Of a stretch of DNA of 10,522 bases, positions 895 through 10,426 are shown piece after piece; positions within the stretch are counted from its first letter, which is position 1, and every line of letters begins with the position of its first letter. This DNA is from a virus. The translations under genes and the position numbers were made by a program. The stretch lies in the UHGV virus genome UHGV-1718161, one strand, 5' to 3'. The notes under the pieces are model-generated. The model was not told where the DNA came from. It ran no database searches and was given only the letters and a program-made list of their open reading frames with translations.

Positions 895-1836
895 TCACCC
901 CCTGAATCCTGCCGGGATCTGGCTGTAGTCCACGTTGTCGTAACTGGCTTTGAAGTACGGGTCTTCGCGTTTTTCGGTGTACGTGCTGACGGACGGCGAT
1001 AAGCGCAGGGAAAGCTCATCCCATTTTTCCCGCAGCTTCGACGGGCTGAGCACGTTACGGCACCAGAACGGATCGCGGCTGACGCGGCTGTACATCTCGC
1101 AGATTTGTTTGTGAGTACGACCATCCTGCACACACATCAGGCGAATTTCGTTTGCCCAGGCTGTCCAGTTCGGTTCTTTGGGACGAACCACCTCGCCGTC
1201 ACATTCGGCGGCCTGCTCGTACAGGGCGATGATTTTTTTCCAGAGCCACTGTGCGCAGGTCAAATCATCCTGCGTTCCCCACTGGCGCTTTTTAGGGCTG
1301 AATACAACCGCATTAGGATGGCGAGTTAAAAACTCCTGTTCAGCCGTCTGCGTGTCCGGTTGCGAAGCGTCCGGACGAGAAGTTTTTTTATCTGACGGAT
1401 CATGTTTTGATTTTACTGACGGATCCCCGCCAGATTCTGACGGGTGAAAACCCGCTTTTTTGCCAGATTTCGACGCATCAAATTTTGACGGGTCAGATTT
1501 TGATGCGTCAGATTTTGACGGGTCAGAATCTGACAATTGAGAAAATGCCGCTGCCTGAAGCTTCGCAACGTTAAGCTGATAAACATTCGACGCATTGCGG
1601 TTACCCTGGCGACGCGCCTTACGCGTTAACCAGCCTTCTGCTTCCAGCCGTGCGATAGCCGTTCTGACGGTACTCATCCCCGCGCCAATCTGACGGGCAA
1701 TGGTTTCAATTGATGGCCAGCACACACCTTCGTCATTACTGAAATCAGCCAGGCGGGCCATAATTGCCACGCTGGATAATTTCATGCCTGACGCAGCGCA
1801 ACCATCCCATACATAGCCGGTTAATTTAGTGCTCAT
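895..1836 (-). CDS. phage replication initiation protein (lambda O-like / replisome organizer) with internal origin iterons
   Basis: 313-aa ORF; ATG at 1836-1834 with GAGG upstream. N-terminal winged-HTH-like segment (SSVAIMARLADFSNDEGVCWPSIETIARQIGAGMSTVRTAIARLEAEGWL). Central low-complexity pentapeptide repeats (DPSKS/DASKS) are encoded by 15-bp DNA direct repeats, the arrangement lambda uses for ori inside O. Sits downstream of cro/CII as expected. Confidence 0.8.
   Translation of the reverse strand: MSTKLTGYVWDGCAASGMKLSSVAIMARLADFSNDEGVCWPSIETIARQIGAGMSTVRTAIARLEAEGWLTRKARRQGNRNASNVYQLNVAKLQAAAFSQLSDSDPSKSDASKSDPSKFDASKSGKKAGFHPSESGGDPSVKSKHDPSDKKTSRPDASQPDTQTAEQEFLTRHPNAVVFSPKKRQWGTQDDLTCAQWLWKKIIALYEQAAECDGEVVRPKEPNWTAWANEIRLMCVQDGRTHKQICEMYSRVSRDPFWCRNVLSPSKLREKWDELSLRLSPSVSTYTEKREDPYFKASYDNVDYSQIPAGFRG
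1431..1538. repeat. iteron array (about 6 tandem 15-16-bp direct repeats, consensus CAGATTTTGACGGGT) inside the replication gene; probable phage origin of replication
   Basis: Seen directly: cagattctgacgggtg (1431-1446), ccagatttcgacgcat (1463-1478), caaattttgacgggt (1479-1493), cagattttgatgcgt (1494-1508), cagattttgacgggt (1509-1523), cagaatctgacaatt (1524-1538). Degenerate CTGACGGAT copies lie at about 1391-1400 and 1416-1424. Confidence 0.65.
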
Positions 1837-1845
1837 GACCGACCT

Positions 1846-2184
1846 CTATTTCCCTGAATTTACGACGAAACTGTTCGAGCGGACTGAAGCATTCATGCTC
1901 ATAGCCTTCGCGGAGGTAGATAACCCGTTGTGTTTCCGGCTCCCAACGAATGACTCTGACGGGTACTCCGTAGTGATCTTTGAACCAGCGGTTAACTTGT
2001 CGCAAAGGACTGTCTCCTTTTGCCGGTTAAAATCACCCACAGCCCACTCTGCAAAGCTGTGGGTTACAATTACCCTGCCACCTGGTACATTTACTGCATA
2101 GCAATACTCCACCTTCGCTTTTCCACCCGGTACAGGAAGCGCAATCAGTTGCGAGCGACGGTAGTGTGTTGTTAAACTGTTCAT
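1846..2184 (-). CDS. hypothetical phage early protein (112 aa)
   Basis: ATG at 2184-2182 overlaps the stop of the upstream CII-like gene (ATGA), with GGAGAA 8 nt upstream. No family recognised. The plus-strand ORF 1829..2101 on the same DNA is rejected in its favour. Confidence 0.55.
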
Positions 2185-2732
2185 GCGTTAGTTTCTCCAC
2201 AGTCACGACACGCCACGGCGCCCGGAGCTGCACACTCGCGGGCGTCACTACTTTCTGAAACGCAAAAGATTTTGTAGACCAGAGCTGCATGCTCCTGCAG
2301 CTTCGAAATTGAGAGGTACAGCTCATCGTTAATTGCTGTCTTCTCATGCGGTTCCACTACACCGTCTTCAATTGCTGAACGAATCTGTCTGGAATAACTG
2401 CCGATCTGTTCAATGACTTCCAGCAGACGCTGGTTAATATCGGCATTGTCCACATCCTCGACGTCAGGAAGAGACACAAAGATGCCATTTGCAGACTGCG
2501 CCACAGCGTCAGCAATGAAGTGAGTTCCACCAGCACGTTGCAAAATCATTGCCCATCCCAGCGGGAAAATCTGATCGCCATCGGCACGAAGGCGGTTAAA
2601 TAATGCGTTCTCTGTTACGTCCAGCCAGTCAGCAGCTTCAGCGTAACCCCCCGGCAACGCTGCGATAGTTTTTCTGACAGCTTTCACGTACCACTCAGGC
2701 TGTTTTTCTACTTTCCAGTGATGCTTACCCAC
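2181..2732 (-). CDS. CII-like phage regulatory protein (phage 186 CII / CP76-type), 183 aa
   Basis: ORF track runs to 2843 but that would overlap cro. GTG at 2732-2730 with GAGGAG 6 nt upstream starts 29 nt after the cro stop. Residue pattern (...[21 protein letters not shown]...FIADAVAQ...) resembles the 186-type CII family as I remember it; family assignment is moderate. Confidence 0.6.
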
Positions 2733-2760
2733 GGTTAACTCCTCGTTTCTGTGGTTACGT

Positions 2761-3024
2761 TTACGCAGCTGAACCGCTAACTTTTGAATAGCACTCAGGT
2801 AATCCATCATTTGGATTGGGGTAAATATCAGGACGCAGTTCATGAGGGGTCACGGACCAGTTTCCCAACTCACAAAGTTGTAAAACCCGTTCTGACGGGA
2901 CTTGATTGTTAATTACCCAATTAGCGACGGATTGAGTGGACTTAAAACCAAAGTGACGGGCTACTTCAGATAAAGATTTTCCCGCAGCTTTTACTGCTTT
3001 CTCTGTGTAGTTTTGAGATGACAT
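2761..3024 (-). CDS. cro: Cro-like HTH regulator (YdaS/Cro family)
   Basis: 87-aa ORF divergent from the cI-like gene; ATG at 3024-3022 with GGAGGAG upstream. HTH segment (LSEVARHFGFKSTQSVANWV) and the ...ERVLQLCELGNWSVTPHELRPD... pattern typical of YdaS/Cro-type proteins (recalled). Confidence 0.8.
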   Translation of the reverse strand: MSSQNYTEKAVKAAGKSLSEVARHFGFKSTQSVANWVINNQVPSERVLQLCELGNWSVTPHELRPDIYPNPNDGLPECYSKVSGSAA

Positions 3025-3056
3025 ACCTTTCTCCTCCGAAATTCAGAGGGATGATG

Positions 3057-3092
3057 CTACTTAAAATAGCAAAATGCAACTACTTAAAATAG
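3057..3092. promoter_or_regulatory. OR-like operator/promoter region between divergent cro and cI: two copies of the 13-bp site CTACTTAAAATAG
   Basis: Seen directly: ctacttaaaatag at 3057-3069 and again at 3080-3092 (centres 23 bp apart), in the 70-bp gap between the cro start (3024) and the cI start. Related 13-mers with the same CTA...TAG ends occur at 3893-3905 and 5305-5317. Confidence 0.5.
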
Positions 3093-3094
3093 AA

Positions 3095-3835
3095 ATGACT
3101 AGCGTATGTGATGCGAGTAATCTTCTACCTATGGTAGAAGAACAGAAGTATCCAGATTTCGCCAAGAGACTAAACGAGCTAATGACAAACAAGGGAATTT
3201 CTGTCACCCAACTCAAAAGTCTTGTGGGCGTTACATATGAAATGGCGCGGCGATACACAATCGGCGCTGCGAAGCCTCGTGCCTCTGTCATGAATAAACT
3301 TGCATTGGCTCTGGGGGTATCAGCTTCATATTTAGAATATGGTGTTGGCGAGAGAGAAGGATGTAAGGAAATGGCAAGCATCCCCAATCCAACAAAACCC
3401 GATGTATACAGGATAGAAGTTTTGGATCTTAGCGTTAGCGCAGGACCTGGGACCTATATGCTTTCAGACTATGTTGATGTGCTCTACGCCATTGAGTTCA
3501 CAACAGAGCATGCCCGTTCTCTTTTCGGTAATCGTTCTCAAGATGATATTAAAGTTATGACTGTAAATGGCGACAGCATGTCCCCTACTCTAGTTTCCGG
3601 AGATCGACTGTTTGTCGACATTTCTGTTCGCAACTTCCAAACTGATGGTGTTTACTCTTTCGTTTATGGTAAGACGTTCCACGTTAAACGTCTACAAATG
3701 CAAGGCAACAAACTCGCCGTTCTTTCGGATAATCCAGCCTATGAGAAATGGTACATTGATGAGAAGTCCCAAGATCAACTTTATGTTATGGGCAAAGCAT
3801 TGATACACGAATCAATTAAATACAACCGGCTTTAG
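3095..3835 (+). CDS. cI: cI-type prophage repressor (N-terminal XRE-family HTH, C-terminal LexA-like S24 peptidase domain)
   Basis: HTH (FAKRLNELMTNKGISVTQLKSLVGVTYEMARRY), S24 serine motif (VNGDSMSPTL) and downstream catalytic Lys (FHVKRL). Start is ambiguous: the ORF-track ATG at 3074 lies between the two operator copies, so I prefer ATG 3095 (leaderless-style); ATG 3131 is also possible. Stop TAG 3833-3835. Confidence 0.85.
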   Translation: MTSVCDASNLLPMVEEQKYPDFAKRLNELMTNKGISVTQLKSLVGVTYEMARRYTIGAAKPRASVMNKLALALGVSASYLEYGVGEREGCKEMASIPNPTKPDVYRIEVLDLSVSAGPGTYMLSDYVDVLYAIEFTTEHARSLFGNRSQDDIKVMTVNGDSMSPTLVSGDRLFVDISVRNFQTDGVYSFVYGKTFHVKRLQMQGNKLAVLSDNPAYEKWYIDEKSQDQLYVMGKALIHESIKYNRL

Positions 3836-4006
3836 TTCTTCGTTTAGACTATAGAACTAAAGGTAAAAAAAATAATATTTAGCAAGCAAGTGCTATTACT
3901 AATAGTTGTTTTACTCTCTTATTTTTATTAAACATTATCATTAACAATATAAAATAATTACCCAGCGTAAATTACAATATGCTGGGGGTCGAAAGGATAG
4001 AGAAAC

Positions 4007-5083
4007 ATGACAAAATCAATTTGTTTTTTTAATCATAAAGGTGGGGTAAGTAAAACCACAACAACCTTCAATCTTGGATGGGCACTTGCGGATGAAGGCA
4101 AGAAAGTATTGATGGTTGACCTTGATTCGCAATGTAATCTAACAGGAATGGTTCTTGGCTATGAAAAGATTGATGAGGGTTTAGATTCTTTTTATTCTAG
4201 CAGAGATAACTTAACTCTTGGACCTATTGTAGAATATTTGATTAATGGCGGACAACCTGAAGCATACCTTGAAAAAGAAACGGGAAAATTACACCCTACA
4301 CTGCATGAAAACCTTCTGCTTCTTCCCGGACATTTAGATGTTTCGGACTTAGATTCACAGATAAGTGTTTCTCTAAAAATTGCTGCTGGTATTCCTGCTA
4401 CAAGAAATATACCAGGGAACCTGCCAAAAATATTACAGCTAATCGCCTTGAAGAATAATATTGATTACATTCTTTATGATCTCAGCCCTAATGTTGGAGG
4501 TTTAAATGAAGTAGTTCTCATGTCAAGTGACTATTTTATCGTACCTGTAGCTCCAGACTTTTTTTGCTGGCAAGCAATTCGCTCTCTCTCAAAAAATATA
4601 CCTCGCTGGCACAAAGAATTAGCATTATTTAAAGAAAATAATGATGGTAACTCTTCACAATCAATTAAAAATGCACCGCAGTTTCTAGGTATGATTCAGC
4701 AGAGATACAGGCCGCGTAAAGGAGCACCTGTAAAATCTTTCGAAAAATGGATGGCAGCTATCCGTGATGCTGTTGATTCGATCTTAGTGCCAAATCTAGA
4801 AAAAATTACCTGCATAATTCCACGAGATAAAGTGCAACATGCAATTAACAAAACAACAGTCAGTGGAGATTTATCAGCCTATGATCTTGCGCATATTTCC
4901 GATTTCAACTCATTAATCGCAATAAGCCAACAACTAGCGACACCTGTTTTCTCCATCAGTGATCAGCAAATTCGCGATTCAGGGCAATTTGGGCATGCCT
5001 TAAATACAATGAAATCAAGCAGAGACGCCTTTAACGAACAATTTAAAGGGCTGGCTCAACGAGTTCTAGAACTTACAAAGTAA
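4007..5083 (+). CDS. ParA/MinD-superfamily ATPase with a roughly 120-aa C-terminal extension (358 aa); candidate lysogen-expressed exclusion/defence protein
   Basis: Deviant Walker A NHKGGVSKTT (res 9-18), ParA-type LMVDLDSQCNL, Walker-B-like ILYDLSP. AAGGA/GAGAAA RBS before ATG 4007. Sits in a visibly AT-rich segment directly downstream of cI in the same orientation and is followed by an intrinsic terminator. No ParB-like partner ORF or parS-like repeats nearby. Confidence 0.85.
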   Translation: MTKSICFFNHKGGVSKTTTTFNLGWALADEGKKVLMVDLDSQCNLTGMVLGYEKIDEGLDSFYSSRDNLTLGPIVEYLINGGQPEAYLEKETGKLHPTLHENLLLLPGHLDVSDLDSQISVSLKIAAGIPATRNIPGNLPKILQLIALKNNIDYILYDLSPNVGGLNEVVLMSSDYFIVPVAPDFFCWQAIRSLSKNIPRWHKELALFKENNDGNSSQSIKNAPQFLGMIQQRYRPRKGAPVKSFEKWMAAIRDAVDSILVPNLEKITCIIPRDKVQHAINKTTVSGDLSAYDLAHISDFNSLIAISQQLATPVFSISDQQIRDSGQFGHALNTMKSSRDAFNEQFKGLAQRVLELTK

Positions 5084-5090
5084 TGCATGT

Positions 5091-5127
5091 GCCCGGCCGC
5101 ATAACCGGGCTTTACTCTTCTTTCTCC
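5091..5127 (+). terminator. rho-independent terminator after the ParA-like gene
   Basis: GCCCGG (5091-5096), loop ccgcataa, CCGGGC (5105-5110), followed by a T-rich tract tttactcttctttct. Confidence 0.6.
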
Positions 5128-5268
5128 CTGATTAATCTCATAAAAAACTCCCTCCTCATAATTCACTATGCTCAATACCTACTCCAACTTCGTGCGATAT
5201 TTTCAGTTTACAGCATAGTAAATCAGCAAAAACATTTAACTTTCAATTAATTATAGAAAAATCATAGA

Positions 5269-5326
5269 CAACAACAAATATCTACTTTTTGTTGTTGATT
5301 TTTGCTACTTTAAGTAGCAACATAAT
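5269..5326 (+). promoter_or_regulatory. pL/OL-like regulatory region: two adjacent palindromes plus a -10-like CATAAT
   Basis: Inverted repeat caacaacaaa (5269-5278) / tttgttgttg (5288-5297). Perfect 19-bp palindrome ttgctacttTaagtagcaa (5302-5320) containing the operator-like 13-mer CTACTTTAAGTAG (5305-5317). CATAAT at 5321-5326, TTGATT at 5295-5300 (spacing not ideal). Position mirrors lambda oL/pL after the rex slot. Confidence 0.35.
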
Positions 5327-5470: not shown

Positions 5471-5992
5471 TTAAGGAATCCAAGGCGAATTCAGATCTCG
5501 CCCCAACTCACGTAATGATCTTGGTCGTTCGTACATCGGATTTTTTTCCATAAGAAATTTATTTTCACAGTGAAGGCAACGGCTTGTAAGAAAATGAGAA
5601 GTTTTACCTACTGGAAGCGGATGAAGTATCGATTTTATATTTTTGGAATAACAAAGTGGGCACAGATGCACAGTTATTTCTTTTCCACTCACAATTTCAT
5701 TTTTAGAGTAAACAAAAGCACCAGAGTCAAGCTGATCAAGGACATATCCTTCTACCTTGGCACAAAAATCTTCAAACTCTGCAATTTTTGCTTTGAGATG
5801 CATCACCTCTTCATCACGAAGGCGGATCGCATCGCCAAGAGAGAAGCATTCTGCCTGAAGCGTGATTAGTTTGTTCTGGAGTTCAATGGTTGCAGCTTTA
5901 ACTTCTGCATCCGTTTTCGCGTCATTAATAACCTTAGCAAGACCGGCAGTCTCCTTTATAGCGGCCATAGCCGCAGACAGTTCAGCTATCAC
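5471..5992 (-). CDS. hypothetical coiled-coil protein with a C-terminal C4 zinc ribbon (173 aa)
   Basis: N-terminal 80 residues are Ala/Lys/Glu-rich and helical; CPLC (111-114) and CLHC (139-142) form CxxC-x24-CxxC. ORF-track start is a GTG at 5992; the first ATG is at 5968-5966, neither with a strong SD. Own terminator downstream. Antisense plus-strand ORFs (5570..5869, 5862..6056) look like low-complexity shadows. Confidence 0.7.
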   Translation of the reverse strand: MIAELSAAMAAIKETAGLAKVINDAKTDAEVKAATIELQNKLITLQAECFSLGDAIRLRDEEVMHLKAKIAEFEDFCAKVEGYVLDQLDSGAFVYSKNEIVSGKEITVHLCPLCYSKNIKSILHPLPVGKTSHFLTSRCLHCENKFLMEKNPMYERPRSLRELGRDLNSPWIP

Positions 5993-6052: not shown

Positions 6053-6461
6053 ATAACTAGGTCCACCTCGCCTGATGTGGCTAAAAGCAGGCACATAACA
6101 GCTAAGTATTTTCAACCAGAGAGAATCCTTAGCGTTGTGGTGAATGCGGCTCAGCGCACGCGGGTTAAGGTTGAGGCTGACAGTCGACCTTCTGTGGATA
6201 CCCACCCGCCTGGTGTGCAACCTTCGCCAGGCACCGGGAGGCACCCGGCACCACAACTTTATGCTGTGTGTAGTCCTGGCGGTATCAGCTTGTACCCTTG
6301 CTTCCGGCTGGTACCGTCCTTTTTACAAAACAGAGAAGAGTATCACCGGACGACGGGCTCATAACCCAATCCATCCGGGCGGCTGCCACCGCAGGTGTTC
6401 TTCTCTGTTTTGTGGAGAAACCAACCGACCTTGCAGGGTCGATATGATGGGGAGCAGCAAA

Positions 6462-9036: not shown

Positions 9037-9386
9037 TGGAGCCATACAGCCTCACACTCGATGAGGCCTGTCATTTTCTCAAGATATCCAGACCGACTGC
9101 CATTAACTGGATACGCACAGGGCGTCTTCAGGCAACACGCAAAGATCCCACTAAGAATAAATCTCCTTACCTCACAACACGACAAGCCTGCATTGCGGCT
9201 CTTCAGTCTCCGCTGCATACTGTCCAGGTGAGCGCGGGTGATGGCATAACAGAGGAAAGAAAATGTCACTCTTCCGCAGAGGTGAAATATGGTACGCCAG
9301 TTTCACATTGCCGAACGGTAAAAGATTTAAACAGTCTCTTGGAACAAAGGACAAAAGGCAGGCGACAGAACTCCATGACAAGCTAA
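9036..9386 (+). CDS. xis: excisionase (P22 Xis-like, 116 aa)
   Basis: ATG 9036 overlaps the upstream stop (TAATG), with GAGGTG upstream. The ORF-track frame extends upstream to 8952 but coupling favours 9036. Lies immediately upstream of int and overlaps it (9263-9386). Sequence ([38 protein letters not shown]...) matches my memory of P22 Xis. Confidence 0.75.
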
Positions 9387-10426
9387 AGGCTGAAGCATGG
9401 CGGGTCAGCAAACTTGGTGAAATACCTGATATAACGTTCGAGGAAGCGTGTATCAGGTGGCTTGAAGAGAAAGCACATAAAAAATCACTGGACGATGACA
9501 AAAGCCGGATCGGATTCTGGCTTCAACATTTCGCAGGAATGCAACTAAGAGACATTACTGAATCAAAAATTTATTCAGCAATGCAGAAAATGACGAACCG
9601 GCGTCATGAGGAAAACTGGAAACTCAGGACAGAAGCATGCAGAAAAAAAGGGAAACCTGTTCCAGAATACACGCCAAAACCAGCGTCCGTTGCAACGAAG
9701 GCTACGCATCTTTCATTTATAAAAGCCCTACTAAGAGCCGCAGAGCGTGAATGGAAAATGCTGGATAAGGCACCAATTATTAAAGTGCCTCAACCAAAGA
9801 ATAAACGGATCCGCTGGCTGGAGCCCCATGAAGCACAAAGGCTGATTGATGAATGTCCGGAGCCATTAAAGTCTGTTGTTGAATTTGCACTGGCAACAGG
9901 CTTAAGACGCTCGAACATCATCAACCTTGAATGGCAACAAATAGACATGCAGCGCCGGGTGGCATGGATAAACCCGGAAGAGAGTAAATCAAACCGCGCA
10001 ATTGGCGTTGCGCTGAATGATACTGCATGTCGCGTTTTGAAAAAACAAATCGGGAATCATCACCGTTGGGTATTTGTGTACAAGGAAAGCTGTACCAAAC
10101 CAGACGGAACGAAAGCGCCAACAGTAAGGAAGATGCGGTATGACGCAAACACAGCCTGGAAAGCGGCGCTGAGACGGGCTGGTATTGATGATTTCAGATT
10201 TCACGACTTGAGACACACCTGGGCAAGTTGGCTGGTTCAAGCCGGAGTCCCGTTGTCAGTGTTACAGGAAATGGGAGGCTGGGAGTCTATCGAAATGGTT
10301 CGTCGATATGCTCACCTTGCACCTAATCACCTTACCGAACACGCACGGCAAATAGACTCGATCCTGAACCCATCGGTCCCAAATTCGTCCCAGTCAAAAA
10401 ATAAGGAAGGTACTAATGATGTGTAA
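9263..10426 (+). CDS. int: tyrosine-family site-specific integrase (P22 Int-like, 387 aa)
   Basis: GAGGAA RBS before ATG 9263. Catalytic signature: R in ATGLRRSN, H-x-x-R in [11 protein letters not shown], Tyr in VRRYAHL. Near-identical to my memory of P22 integrase, which uses thrW. Ends 14 bp before the tRNA 3' end. Confidence 0.95.

Follow-up and report, generated by a model that had tools for sequence, protein, structure and literature searches.

An orphan ParA-like ATPase gene in a prophage immunity region: most likely a relative of two Salmonella prophage defence ATPases rather than a DNA-partition protein

Introduction

What does a ParA-type ATPase do in the immunity region of an integrated prophage? 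Type I ParABS systems are recognized by a cognate ParB or adaptor gene in the operon, parS repeats and a replicon that needs segregation. The window, i.e. the whole stretch of 10,522 nucleotides analysed here (virus genome UHGV-1718161), carries a ParA/MinD-like gene that an earlier note, made from the sequence alone, had described as an orphan unlikely to serve in partition. An "orphan parA just downstream of prophage repressor" has been in the literature since 2011 (PMC3121763), when Lemire et al. speculated, for the parA homologues of Gifsy prophages, about a latency period with limited replication (PMC3121763).

The ParA-like protein

The open reading frame in question is genuine:

4007-5083, plus strand: ParA-like ATPase gene, 358 aa with an ATG start, single-domain member of the ParA/MinD superfamily

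Its superfamily membership, proposed in the earlier note, was borne out by matches to Pfam AAA_31 (residues 3-204, E 2.4e-29) and CbiA and by PHROG 164, which covers the protein over its full length. The Walker A, A' and B motifs are intact, as had been claimed: K11 and K16 of the deviant Walker A motif (K11-GGVS-K16-TT), D38, D40, Q42 and N44 of A'/switch I, and D158 of Walker B are invariant or nearly so in alignments of 26 and 40 sequences. These residues support the view that the protein is probably an active ATPase. R233, R235 and R237 are also invariant and, by our reading of the alignment, would be placed where Soj-type proteins carry a DNA-binding arginine. The search for a specific named family in PADLOC, NCBIfam and Pfam gave generic ParA/P-loop matches only. 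The NCBIfam equivalogs all scored far under their cut-offs with matches confined to the P-loop, including NF041546 (ParA_partition; 55.5 bits against a cut-off of 180) and minD_bact (35.8 bits against 212.9).

The protein is about 90-100 aa longer than Soj and MinD (237-276 aa among the PDB matches). This excess is real, whereas its description as a long C-terminal extension did not hold. The AlphaFold model (pLDDT 86, pTM 0.89) is one domain with seven core beta-strands (3-7, 34-39, 103-106, 154-159, 176-181, 225-233 and 293-298), and the surplus is accounted for by internal helical insertions at roughly 53-100, 185-224 and 243-290, to which a long last helix (330-357), modelled with high confidence inside the domain, adds. 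The structure prediction that had been suggested as a check for a C-terminal effector or sensor fold revealed a single ParA fold throughout, and such a domain is ruled out by the model, by Foldseek and by the end-to-end alignment of the family profile with PDB 3pg5 (residues 3-350 against 2-344, E 6.6e-40), the top Foldseek match. The extra residues belong to that one fold as insertions and leave no C-terminal effector or sensor domain to seek. The conserved DFNSLIAISQ..PVF motif (299-315) reads as the canonical C-terminal motif of ParA/Soj proteins, and the fold matches of the model include Soj, McdA, MinD and FleN. The length is the norm of the family, which is about 357 aa (about 355-372 aa among the full-length homologues listed).

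Layout of the immunity region

The prophage is a lambdoid one of E. coli. The locus runs in the order cro-OR-cI, a fourth cI-type operator, a hairpin, the ParA-like gene, a strong terminator and OL/PL. The features around the gene are as follows:

start at 3024, minus strand: cro-like gene, on the other side of OR from cI
3051-3096: OR region, with two operators CTACTTAAAATAG at 3057-3069 and 3080-3092 (direct repeat D1, motif count)
3131-3835, plus strand: cI-type repressor gene (Pfam HTH_3 and Peptidase_S24)
3893-3905: fourth cI-type operator-like palindrome CTATTACTAATAG, matching CTAYT-N3-ARTAG
3929-3958, plus strand: candidate sigma-70 promoter, TAAACA-18-AATAAT, weak, in an AT-rich region (9/12 in a consensus scan)
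3961-3987, plus strand: stem-loop in the leader, with a 9-bp stem and an 8-nt loop, ending 20 nt before the start codon
5091-5110, plus strand: intrinsic terminator GCCCGGCCGCATAACCGGGC with six G-C pairs, followed by a T-rich tail (terminator scan)
5278-5323: OL/PL, an inverted copy of OR (motif and inverted repeat I1)

OR and OL form a 46-nt inverted repeat (I1) with 80% complementarity. In OL, the operator CTACTTTAAGTAG at 5305-5317 is a perfect palindrome, and a degenerate copy of it lies at 5282-5294. Reading of the sequence suggests TTGCAT-17-CATCAT on the minus strand as PR, and TTGATT (5294-5299)-17-CAACAT (5317-5322) as PL, which would fire on the plus strand; in strain EC11 about 100 nt separate the OL operator from the start of the first early gene on the plus strand. 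The RefSeq start of cI is at 3131, while the longest ORF begins at 3074, inside the operators; the EC93 annotation gives the repressor as WP_001535858.1 (705 nt).

The palindrome at 3893-3905, which the earlier note had taken as operator-like and as a hint of control by the prophage repressor, is genuine, and its half-sites follow the pattern of the operators in OR and OL. The pattern CTAYT-N3-ARTAG, whose half-site set is derivable from OR alone, has four matches in the window against 0.02 expected, the other three being OR1, OR2 and OL. The palindrome lies 58 nt past the cI stop codon and 114 nt ahead of the ParA-like start. The link to the repressor is thus supported and also sharpened by the location of the gene between cI and OL/PL. 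The palindrome is at the same position in five other E. coli loci, but this is not independent evidence because their DNA is near-identical. A fourth cI-type operator suggests direct coupling of the lysogeny repressor to expression of a cargo gene.

No terminator is predicted after cI by the terminator scan, and the one downstream starts 8 nt past the ParA-like stop codon, in a position analogous to that of tIMM of lambda. The sigma-70 promoter is only a candidate, because at least as many promoter-like sites are expected after shuffling of the region. The leader hairpin reported earlier is confirmed by its 9-bp stem and by the RNA fold of 3940-4030 (MFE -20.1 kcal/mol, z-score -3.84); it has no U-tract and is not called by the terminator scan. 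Its candidacy as a conserved regulatory element was rejected, as its conservation does not reach beyond the E. coli allele to the upstream regions of homologues in other genera. An AT-rich upstream block common to ST160, Lonsdalea and Pectobacterium consists for the most part of the ribosome-binding region for an alternative ATG further upstream. The ParA-like gene itself lies within a low-GC island.

Distribution, neighbours and selection

In E. coli, the gene is found in 109 of 5426 complete genomes (about 2%) at 110 places, always chromosomal, with identical cI and cro in all six loci inspected. The family is large, with thousands of sequences of conserved length and 60-65% identity across several proteobacterial classes sampled. 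Members of the clade in which the ATPase stands alone (the solo clade) are carried by lambdoid, P22-like, Mu-like and P2-like prophages and also occur as chromosomal singletons, and more distant members are carried by filamentous Pf prophages (inovirus). A repressor-type gene (HTH or S24) precedes about a third of the phage-borne members on the same strand. Some copies in Haemophilus, an alphaproteobacterium and a Deferribacteraceae MAG lie between housekeeping genes, in neither phage nor defence context, while GmrSD, AAA_21/AAA_15 and M78 genes adjoin some of the non-prophage copies. Comparison with a 95%-identical allele gave a dN/dS of about 0.01, with synonymous sites near saturation, and two of 17 genomic copies are pseudogenes. 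Sequence comparison indicates that the family is under strong purifying selection.

No conserved neighbour emerged from an all-versus-all BLAST of the flanking ORFs at 17 genomic loci, and a Pfam search of the neighbours in 35 viral clusters found nothing conserved save HEPN in a distant clade. ORF173 (5471-5992, minus strand) was considered as an obligate partner and rejected: 54 genomes have it, compared with 109 that have the ParA-like gene; it is encoded on the opposite strand, past OL/PL; and other prophages with the same immunity carry different alleles in its place or a ClpX-zinc-finger gene on the plus strand. Distant family members (30-39% identity) have a HEPN RNase as partner: a HEPN gene of the RiboL-PSP type directly follows them in Aquitalea, in Pf1 and in 5 of 34 viral clusters. 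BLASTP finds no similarity between these partners and RemN, the HEPN protein of a Salmonella system described below. No HEPN or RemI/RemN-like sequence was found anywhere in the window by tblastn and Pfam, and a vestigial HEPN gene after the ParA-like gene was rejected for want of similarity, including in the 55-aa ORF at 5083-5250.

Homologues in the same slot

The interval between cI and N is a recognized hotspot, occupied by rexAB in lambda and by bstA in BTP1 (PMC8585504). Two distant homologues of the ParA-like protein in this slot, GiPD474 and RemA, are experimentally validated components of phage defence. GiPD474 (STM474_RS13505, WP_000368620.1), from Gifsy-1 of Salmonella Typhimurium 4/74 and Gifsy-3 of 14028s, has been described as a single-gene defence by Bosma, Noireaux & Bowden in 2025 (PMC12724215). 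By itself it lowers the plating of T4, Alf5 and Felix O1 by some 5 logs, and its expression is high in the lysogen (PMC12724215). Its sequence was recovered by means of the primers given in that paper (locus L033, 5723-6808). The ParA-like protein is 22% identical to it over 352 aa and falls outside the published GiPD474 family, which requires identity and coverage of 70% or more relative to WP_000368620.1 (PMC12724215). The relationship is nearly full length in hhalign (99.1%, E 1.6e-18, residues 8-336 against 22-344).

RemA is the ATPase of RemAIN (STM14_3218-3220, Gifsy-1 of S. Typhimurium 14028s; PMC12724215, PMC13043305, PMC9879122), reported by Sargen & Helaine in 2024 as cited in PMC12724215 and PMC13043305. 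RemA acts with RemN, a HEPN anticodon nuclease (PMC13043305). Expression of the RemAIN region does not change with mitomycin C, which fits lysogenic expression (PMC9879122); deletion of the remAIN region raises Gifsy titres two- to four-fold (PMC9879122). In hhalign, RemA matches with 99.2% and 27% identity over the N-terminal 200-220 residues or so, including the helical insertion after switch I.

A closer Salmonella homologue (P0010), 72-73% identical to the window protein, fills the exact slot of GiPD474: between the two loci the repressor is 94% identical and the flanks about 92% on both sides. That this homologue is GiPD474 itself was rejected, since the published primers matched none of those loci and GiPD474 proved to be a different, distant protein.

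No homology to RexA or RexB was found; every match in Pfam, PHROG, NCBIfam and PADLOC is with a P-loop family of the ParA/MinD type. PADLOC-DB v2.0.0 gave only a 38-residue P-loop match (candidate PDC-M28B), a negative that is uninformative for this kind of system because PADLOC misses GiPD474 and RemAIN too.

Discussion

The ParA-like gene most likely encodes a relative of the two Salmonella defence ATPases, not a DNA-partition protein. By analogy with them, we lean slightly towards a lysogen-expressed anti-phage ATPase carried as cargo of the prophage immunity module. In the lysogen, the gene would be transcribed by read-through from the cI promoter, possibly also from its own promoter, and cI bound at the fourth operator may modulate it. 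Through superinfection exclusion, abortive infection or prophage competition, the product would shield its lysogen from other phages, a role modelled on GiPD474, a single gene in the same Gifsy-1 slot, and on RemA. As in other deviant-Walker-A ATPases, it would cycle between a monomer and an ATP-sandwich dimer, with the family-specific helical insertions as a surface recognizing a phage component or DNA. The effector step might be performed in the solo clade by the ATPase itself or by a ubiquitous host factor, and in the distant two-gene relatives by the adjacent HEPN RNase.

Such a function is favoured by the slot, the homology to GiPD474 and RemA, the cargo swap, the HEPN-paired relatives and the repressor-adjacent phage copies, and further by the GmrSD-type neighbours, the low-GC island, the patchy distribution over several proteobacterial classes, the purifying selection and the intact catalytic residues. 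On the other hand, 22-27% identity to the validated proteins is about the divergence found between functionally different ParA-like proteins, PADLOC gives matches only at the level of the P-loop, some copies lie amid housekeeping genes in neither defence nor phage context, and the candidate promoter is no better than chance. The protein also has no nuclease or membrane domain through which it might stop a phage, a difficulty that it shares with GiPD474. More tentatively, and with the balance leaning against it, the solo clade can be regarded as a self-sufficient immune protein that uses the ATP-dimer and DNA-binding cycle of ParA as both sensor and effector. It might, for example, capture or mis-position incoming or replicating phage DNA with no nuclease, membrane pore or NADase, and the ATPase plus HEPN relatives would then be the ancestral or an alternative wiring.

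The protein could instead be a ParA/MinD-type spatial or transcriptional regulator that alters host behaviour or the induction and lysogeny of its own prophage and leaves foreign phages unblocked, which is rather unlikely, albeit the most serious of the rivals. Many orphan ParA/MinD proteins are established as regulators or positioning factors, with Soj acting on DnaA and Spo0A, FleN/FlhG on flagella and MinD on cell division, and Soj, McdA, MinD and FleN are among the fold matches. The homologues in ST160 and Pf1 have been labelled "regulatory protein" by their depositors, the upstream cI-type operator ties the gene to the lysis-lysogeny circuit, and the rise in Gifsy titres upon loss of the remAIN region (PMC9879122) implies that such genes can moderate the induction of their own carrier. 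However, no conserved regulatory target or partner is found beside the gene at the 17 loci or in the 35 viral clusters, and the spread of the family over widely differing hosts and kinds of phage (lambdoid, Mu-like, P2-like and inovirus) argues against a host-specific target. Moreover, the tested homologues act on incoming phages (PMC12724215).

A segregation or maintenance ATPase that stabilizes a transient extrachromosomal phage genome after induction or infection, with an unrecognized adaptor and non-specific DNA binding, is improbable. The ParA fold, the full set of ATPase motifs, the arginines aligned (by our reading) with the DNA-binding one of Soj and the limited-replication latency speculated by Lemire et al. 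(PMC3121763) would suit it. Against it, no ParB turned up either in the window or along 26 kb of the EC93 prophage, which is annotated and nearly identical, and the window contains no adaptor gene and no parS-like repeat array, its sole tandem repeat being the ori iterons inside the O-like gene (1464-1527). The prophage is integrated, with an integrase gene at 9263-10426 and, in EC93, an adjoining tRNA-Thr gene; none of the 110 places in E. coli is on a plasmid; elsewhere the gene sits solo at chromosomal backbone positions, between housekeeping genes. It is also exchanged in its slot for a validated defence gene, and the partition equivalogs of NCBIfam match only at the P-loop, far below cut-off. 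The earlier judgement that a partition role is unlikely, and its premises of a missing ParB and an integrated prophage, thus stood up. Least probable of all, to the point of being hardly credible, is an inactive remnant of a two-gene ATPase and HEPN nuclease system that has lost its effector and hitch-hikes with the immunity module. A HEPN gene does adjoin the distant relatives and is missing from the window, and pseudogenes make up 2 of 17 genomic copies, but a dN/dS of about 0.01 with near-saturated synonymous sites, invariant catalytic residues and the identity (60-65%) and length conserved across proteobacterial classes in thousands of sequences speak against decay, and the solo homologue GiPD474 works on its own (PMC12724215).

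If the defence function is true, a defence gene that PADLOC does not flag is present in about 2% of complete E. coli genomes (109 of 5426) and in many lysogens of Salmonella, Klebsiella, Enterobacter, Serratia, Pantoea, Haemophilus, Mannheimia, Acinetobacter and Pseudomonas. This would bear on predicting the outcome of phage therapy and biocontrol, as for Felix O1 and GiPD474. The immunity-region ParA-like ATPases would then form a broad immune superfamily with solo and HEPN-coupled forms, providing a comparative handle on how a ParA-fold ATPase senses and stops phage; if the solo clade is self-sufficient, it would represent a mechanistic class of defence not yet described.

Comparison with known systems

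MinD has a C-terminal amphipathic membrane-targeting helix and works with MinC and MinE. As modelled, the long last helix of the ParA-like protein (330-357) looks unlike a short terminal membrane-targeting sequence. Soj, McdA and MinD share the fold and the catalytic motifs, and the structures of Soj, ParA and McdA are contained in the model (target-normalized TM-score up to 0.80), whereas the ParA-like protein is longer by about 100 residues, which lie in three internal helical insertions, and its gene has neither a centromere nor an adjacent gene for ParB, MinE, McdB or another adaptor. The only solved structure with the whole long architecture is PDB 3pg5 (DIP2308 of Corynebacterium diphtheriae, from structural genomics), which is only about 20-23% identical and comes from an actinobacterium; a search of the accessible literature found nothing on its function or context, with mentions there only in papers on crystallographic phasing methods.

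RexAB of lambda and BstA of BTP1 share with the ParA-like gene the slot, the presumed co-transcription with the repressor and a terminator before OL/PL, but have no relationship to its product in sequence or fold: RexAB is a two-protein sensor and membrane system, and BstA is a DNA-associated protein of the KilA-N type that comes with a self-immunity element. RemA is likewise a ParA-like ATPase encoded directly downstream of a prophage repressor, but it is 279 aa long and forms a unit with RemI (immunity) and RemN, and the ParA-like gene has neither such partners nor remnants of them; pairing with a HEPN RNase is common to RemAIN and the distant members of the family. GiPD474 carries KGGVGKT in place of KGGVSKT at Walker A and, unlike the ParA-like protein, has an 18-residue N-terminal leader. 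It is likewise a ParA/AAA_31 ATPase of about 360 aa with the long single-domain layout and no partner gene, encoded by a single gene directly downstream of the repressor in the immunity region, and both genes adjoin the cII/cro/repressor module of their prophage.

Gene layout and regulatory sites

The window corresponds to the early and immunity region of a lambdoid prophage integrated in E. coli. Identity to E. coli strain EC93, in which tRNA-Thr/proA adjoins the prophage, is 99.7%. The ParA-like gene sits in a GC-poor island (33-39%, compared with about 50% on either side).

Features of the window
895-1836, minus strand: O-like replication gene
2181-2843, minus strand: cII-like gene
2761-3024, minus strand: cro-like gene
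3057 and 3080: the two OR operators, CTACTTAAAATAG, part of a 46-nt block
3131 (RefSeq start) to 3835 (stop), plus strand: cI-type repressor with HTH and S24 domains
4007-5083, plus strand: ParA-like ATPase gene
5278-5323: OL, an inverted recurrence of the 46-nt OR block, holding the perfect palindrome CTACTTTAAGTAG
5429-5410: ORF173's own terminator
between the ParA-like gene and the integrase, plus strand: yfdP/Q/R/T-type early-left genes
9263-10426, plus strand: integrase

PR and PL can be read from the sequence as TTGCAT-17-CATCAT (minus strand) and TTGATT-17-CAACAT (plus strand), respectively. A strong intrinsic terminator is predicted at 5091-5110, 8 nt past the stop codon of the ParA-like gene, and none is predicted between cI and this gene. 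Since OR and OL flank it and the terminator lies behind it with none after cI, the ParA-like gene belongs to the immunity region. In lambda, the corresponding position is occupied by rexAB.

Both upstream elements pointed out in the earlier note are present: the palindrome CTATTACTAATAG at 3893-3905, and at 3961-3987 a hairpin with a stem of 9 bp (z -3.84). The palindrome shares its 13-bp spacing and its half-sites (CTACT and CTATT) with the OR sites, and the window contains exactly four matches to CTAYT-N3-ARTAG (two in OR, one in OL and the one at 3893-3905), where 0.02 would be expected. The palindrome is a credible candidate for a fourth site bound by the repressor; it precedes the ParA-like start codon by 114 nt and might act in repression, activation or looping. 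A candidate promoter at 3929-3958 scores no better than chance. Two strains, E. coli 550 and E. coli ECE228, are natural variants in which the gene is uncoupled from upstream or downstream signals: one has an IS3-family element separating the candidate fourth operator from the ParA-like gene, the other an IS1 separating this gene from OL.

Several other features of the region deserve mention. Nucleotides 1464-1527, inside the O-like gene, hold four and a third tandem copies of the 15-nt unit CAGATTTTGACGGGT, most likely iterons of the phage origin, as in lambda, and not a parS array. The early part of the PL operon also holds a perfect inverted repeat of 15 nt, ACAAAACAGAGAAGA at 6325-6339 and TCTTCTCTGTTTTGT at 6399-6413 with 59 nt between the arms; it lies inside a hypothetical gene annotated in RefSeq as frameshifted in EC93 (window about 6137-6447). 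ORF173 (5471-5992, minus strand) matches PHROG 1244 (function unknown); its N-terminal part resembles a coiled coil, and a zinc-ribbon-like CxxC...CxxC motif lies near its C terminus. Because it lies just downstream of PL on the opposite strand, it runs antisense to the PL transcript. Other prophages sharing the same immunity carry other alleles at its position, or a plus-strand ClpX-type zinc-finger gene.

The ATPase

The 358-aa ORF is real, and its assignment to the ParA/MinD superfamily is borne out by Pfam AAA_31 (E 2.4e-29) and by a match to PHROG 164 over the full length. Its motifs are intact, as previously described: K11 and K16 (signature and catalytic lysines), D38, D40, Q42 and N44 (A'/switch I) and D158 (the Walker B aspartate) show little or no variation when 26 or 40 homologs are aligned. 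The long C-terminal extension proposed in the earlier note does not exist. An AlphaFold model built with 40 homologs (pLDDT 86, pTM 0.89) is a single compact domain with seven core strands (3-7, 34-39, 103-106, 154-159, 176-181, 225-233 and 293-298), and the extra ~100 residues are internal helical insertions, roughly 53-100, 185-224 and 243-290, plus a long last helix. Entire Soj, ParA and McdA structures are contained in this model, with target-normalised TM-scores up to 0.80 in Foldseek. By reading of the alignment, the conserved QQRYRPR (232-238) would be equivalent to the TMxDxRT strand of Soj, and DFNSLIAISQ..PVF (299-315) to its IPRNVRLSEAP..G.P motif. The size is the norm of the family (about 355-372 aa among the full-length homologs listed), and a 361-aa structural-genomics protein of unknown function (PDB 3pg5) aligns end to end with the family profile (E 6.6e-40).

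Distribution and genomic contexts

The gene is found in 109 of 5426 complete E. coli genomes, always chromosomal and at least 99% identical. In each of six loci looked at, EC93 being one, identical repressor and cro proteins precede it, and the region past OL varies among these same loci. ORF173 is ruled out as an obligate partner, being present in just 54 genomes against 109 for the ParA-like gene.

Outside E. coli the family has a great many members: 60-65% identity is retained across several proteobacterial classes, and 132 representative clusters (50% identity level) score below E 1e-30. In lambdoid prophages the gene directly follows the repressor in Pectobacterium and in the Salmonella Gifsy type, and follows the repressor and a DUF3024 gene in Salmonella phage ST160 and Morganella. 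This small intervening gene (L002:4521-4862 in ST160, L003:5418-5759 in Morganella, and in two viral clusters) is absent from the window. Other contexts include a Mu-like prophage, the end of a P2-like prophage, filamentous Pf prophages of Pseudomonas, islands with GmrSD, AAA_21/AAA_15, M78 or RelA-SpoT genes, and bare chromosomal sites amid housekeeping genes. Solo copies without nearby phage genes occur in L004 and L011 (both Haemophilus), L013 (Deferribacteraceae MAG) and L016 (alphaproteobacterial MAG), flanked by prfC/azlCD, fabD/fabG or tgt/gloB; those in L011 and L013 are split by frameshifts. No neighbour gene is conserved across the genomic loci and viral clusters compared.

Clusters at 47% identity or more are all solo. 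Distant members (30-39% identity), in an Aquitalea Mu-like prophage, a Pseudomonas Pf1 prophage and five of 34 viral clusters, have a RiboL-PSP-type HEPN gene directly next to them, overlapping or after a gap of 10-16 nt (L015:7038-7667, L020:7025-7552 and the ORFs downstream in L114 and L117-L120). These partners carry a conserved SRRN(K/S)I(A/V)HE motif. No HEPN remnant is found in the window. The Pf1 prophage (L020:5103-7552, AY324828.1) is arranged as a minus-strand xis-like HTH gene, an 88-aa plus-strand ORF, the ParA-like gene, the HEPN gene and att. The 88-aa ORF, which has no Pfam match, is possibly the Pf repressor, and the layout behind the repressor may extend to inoviruses. The deposited Pf1 ParA-like CDS begins 26 codons too late, leaving out the Walker A motif.

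Possible function and relation to known prophage systems

We lean towards reading the gene as lysogen-expressed prophage cargo, encoding an ATPase of the GiPD474/RemA kind that would act by itself against phages (or in prophage competition); we hold this with no greater confidence because 22-27% identity to those proteins does not guarantee the same function. It would be expressed together with cI, judging from the missing terminator and the behaviour of the Salmonella analogues. An ATP-driven dimer switch would power the protein, and the family-specific insertions may form a recognition surface. A regulatory or lysogenic-conversion role is rather unlikely. A real role in segregation is much less probable still: the gene is never on a plasmid in the E. 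coli genomes searched, and, as the earlier note stated, the window lacks a ParB-like gene and a parS array, the probable origin iterons being its sole tandem repeat. No ParB-like gene occurs in 26 kb of annotated EC93 prophage either. That the gene is an inactive remnant is scarcely credible, as it is contradicted by very strong purifying selection (pN 0.03 against pS 0.75 between 4007-5083 and L052:4001-5074, an allele 95% identical in protein). Synonymous sites in this allele are near saturation, an unusually deep DNA divergence for so small a protein change.

Preference for a defence ATPase draws on two Salmonella systems. [quoted passage not shown] In two later papers (PMC12724215, PMC13043305), the region is named RemAIN, comprising the RemA ATPase, the immunity protein RemI and the HEPN anticodon nuclease RemN, and is said to block co-resident and incoming phages (Sargen and Helaine, 2024, as cited there). 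GiPD474, a single-gene defence of Gifsy-1 that by itself lowers the plating of T4, Alf5 and Felix O1 by about 5 logs, works in both Salmonella LT2 and E. coli K-12 and is highly expressed during growth (Bosma et al., 2025, PMC12724215).

Both genes were recovered from viral contigs via the published primers: GiPD474 at L033:5723-6808 (361 aa, with GGVGKT at residues 29-34, agreeing with the paper) and RemA at L039:4170-5009 (279 aa, with RemI and RemN behind it). GiPD474 is 22% identical to the window protein over 352 residues (hhalign 99.1%, E 1.6e-18, nearly full length), RemA is 27% identical over the N-terminal 220 residues (hhalign 99.2%), and GiPD474 and RemA share 27% identity. All three belong to a single group of 'long' ParA-like ATPases, each as a branch of its own, and the window protein lies outside the GiPD474 family as published, because that family requires at least 70% identity. 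The RemA/RemN pair is paralleled by the ATPase and HEPN pairing of the distant relatives, although BLASTP detects no relationship between RemN and the RiboL-PSP HEPN partners. Among the arguments from context, a clean exchange of cargo weighs most: P0010, a Salmonella homolog 72-73% identical to the window protein, sits behind a repressor 94% identical to that upstream of GiPD474, and the two loci are ~92% identical on both sides of a non-homologous ~1.3 kb with the ATPase gene.

An orphan parA behind the prophage repressor has been on record since 2011 (Lemire et al., PMC3121763), and single-gene prophage defence by ParA-like proteins is likewise a known kind. The window gene is a new and much more widespread member of it, with a predicted role in defence. 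It gives a large family a tractable member in E. coli and, through the candidate operator, an unusual link to the repressor.
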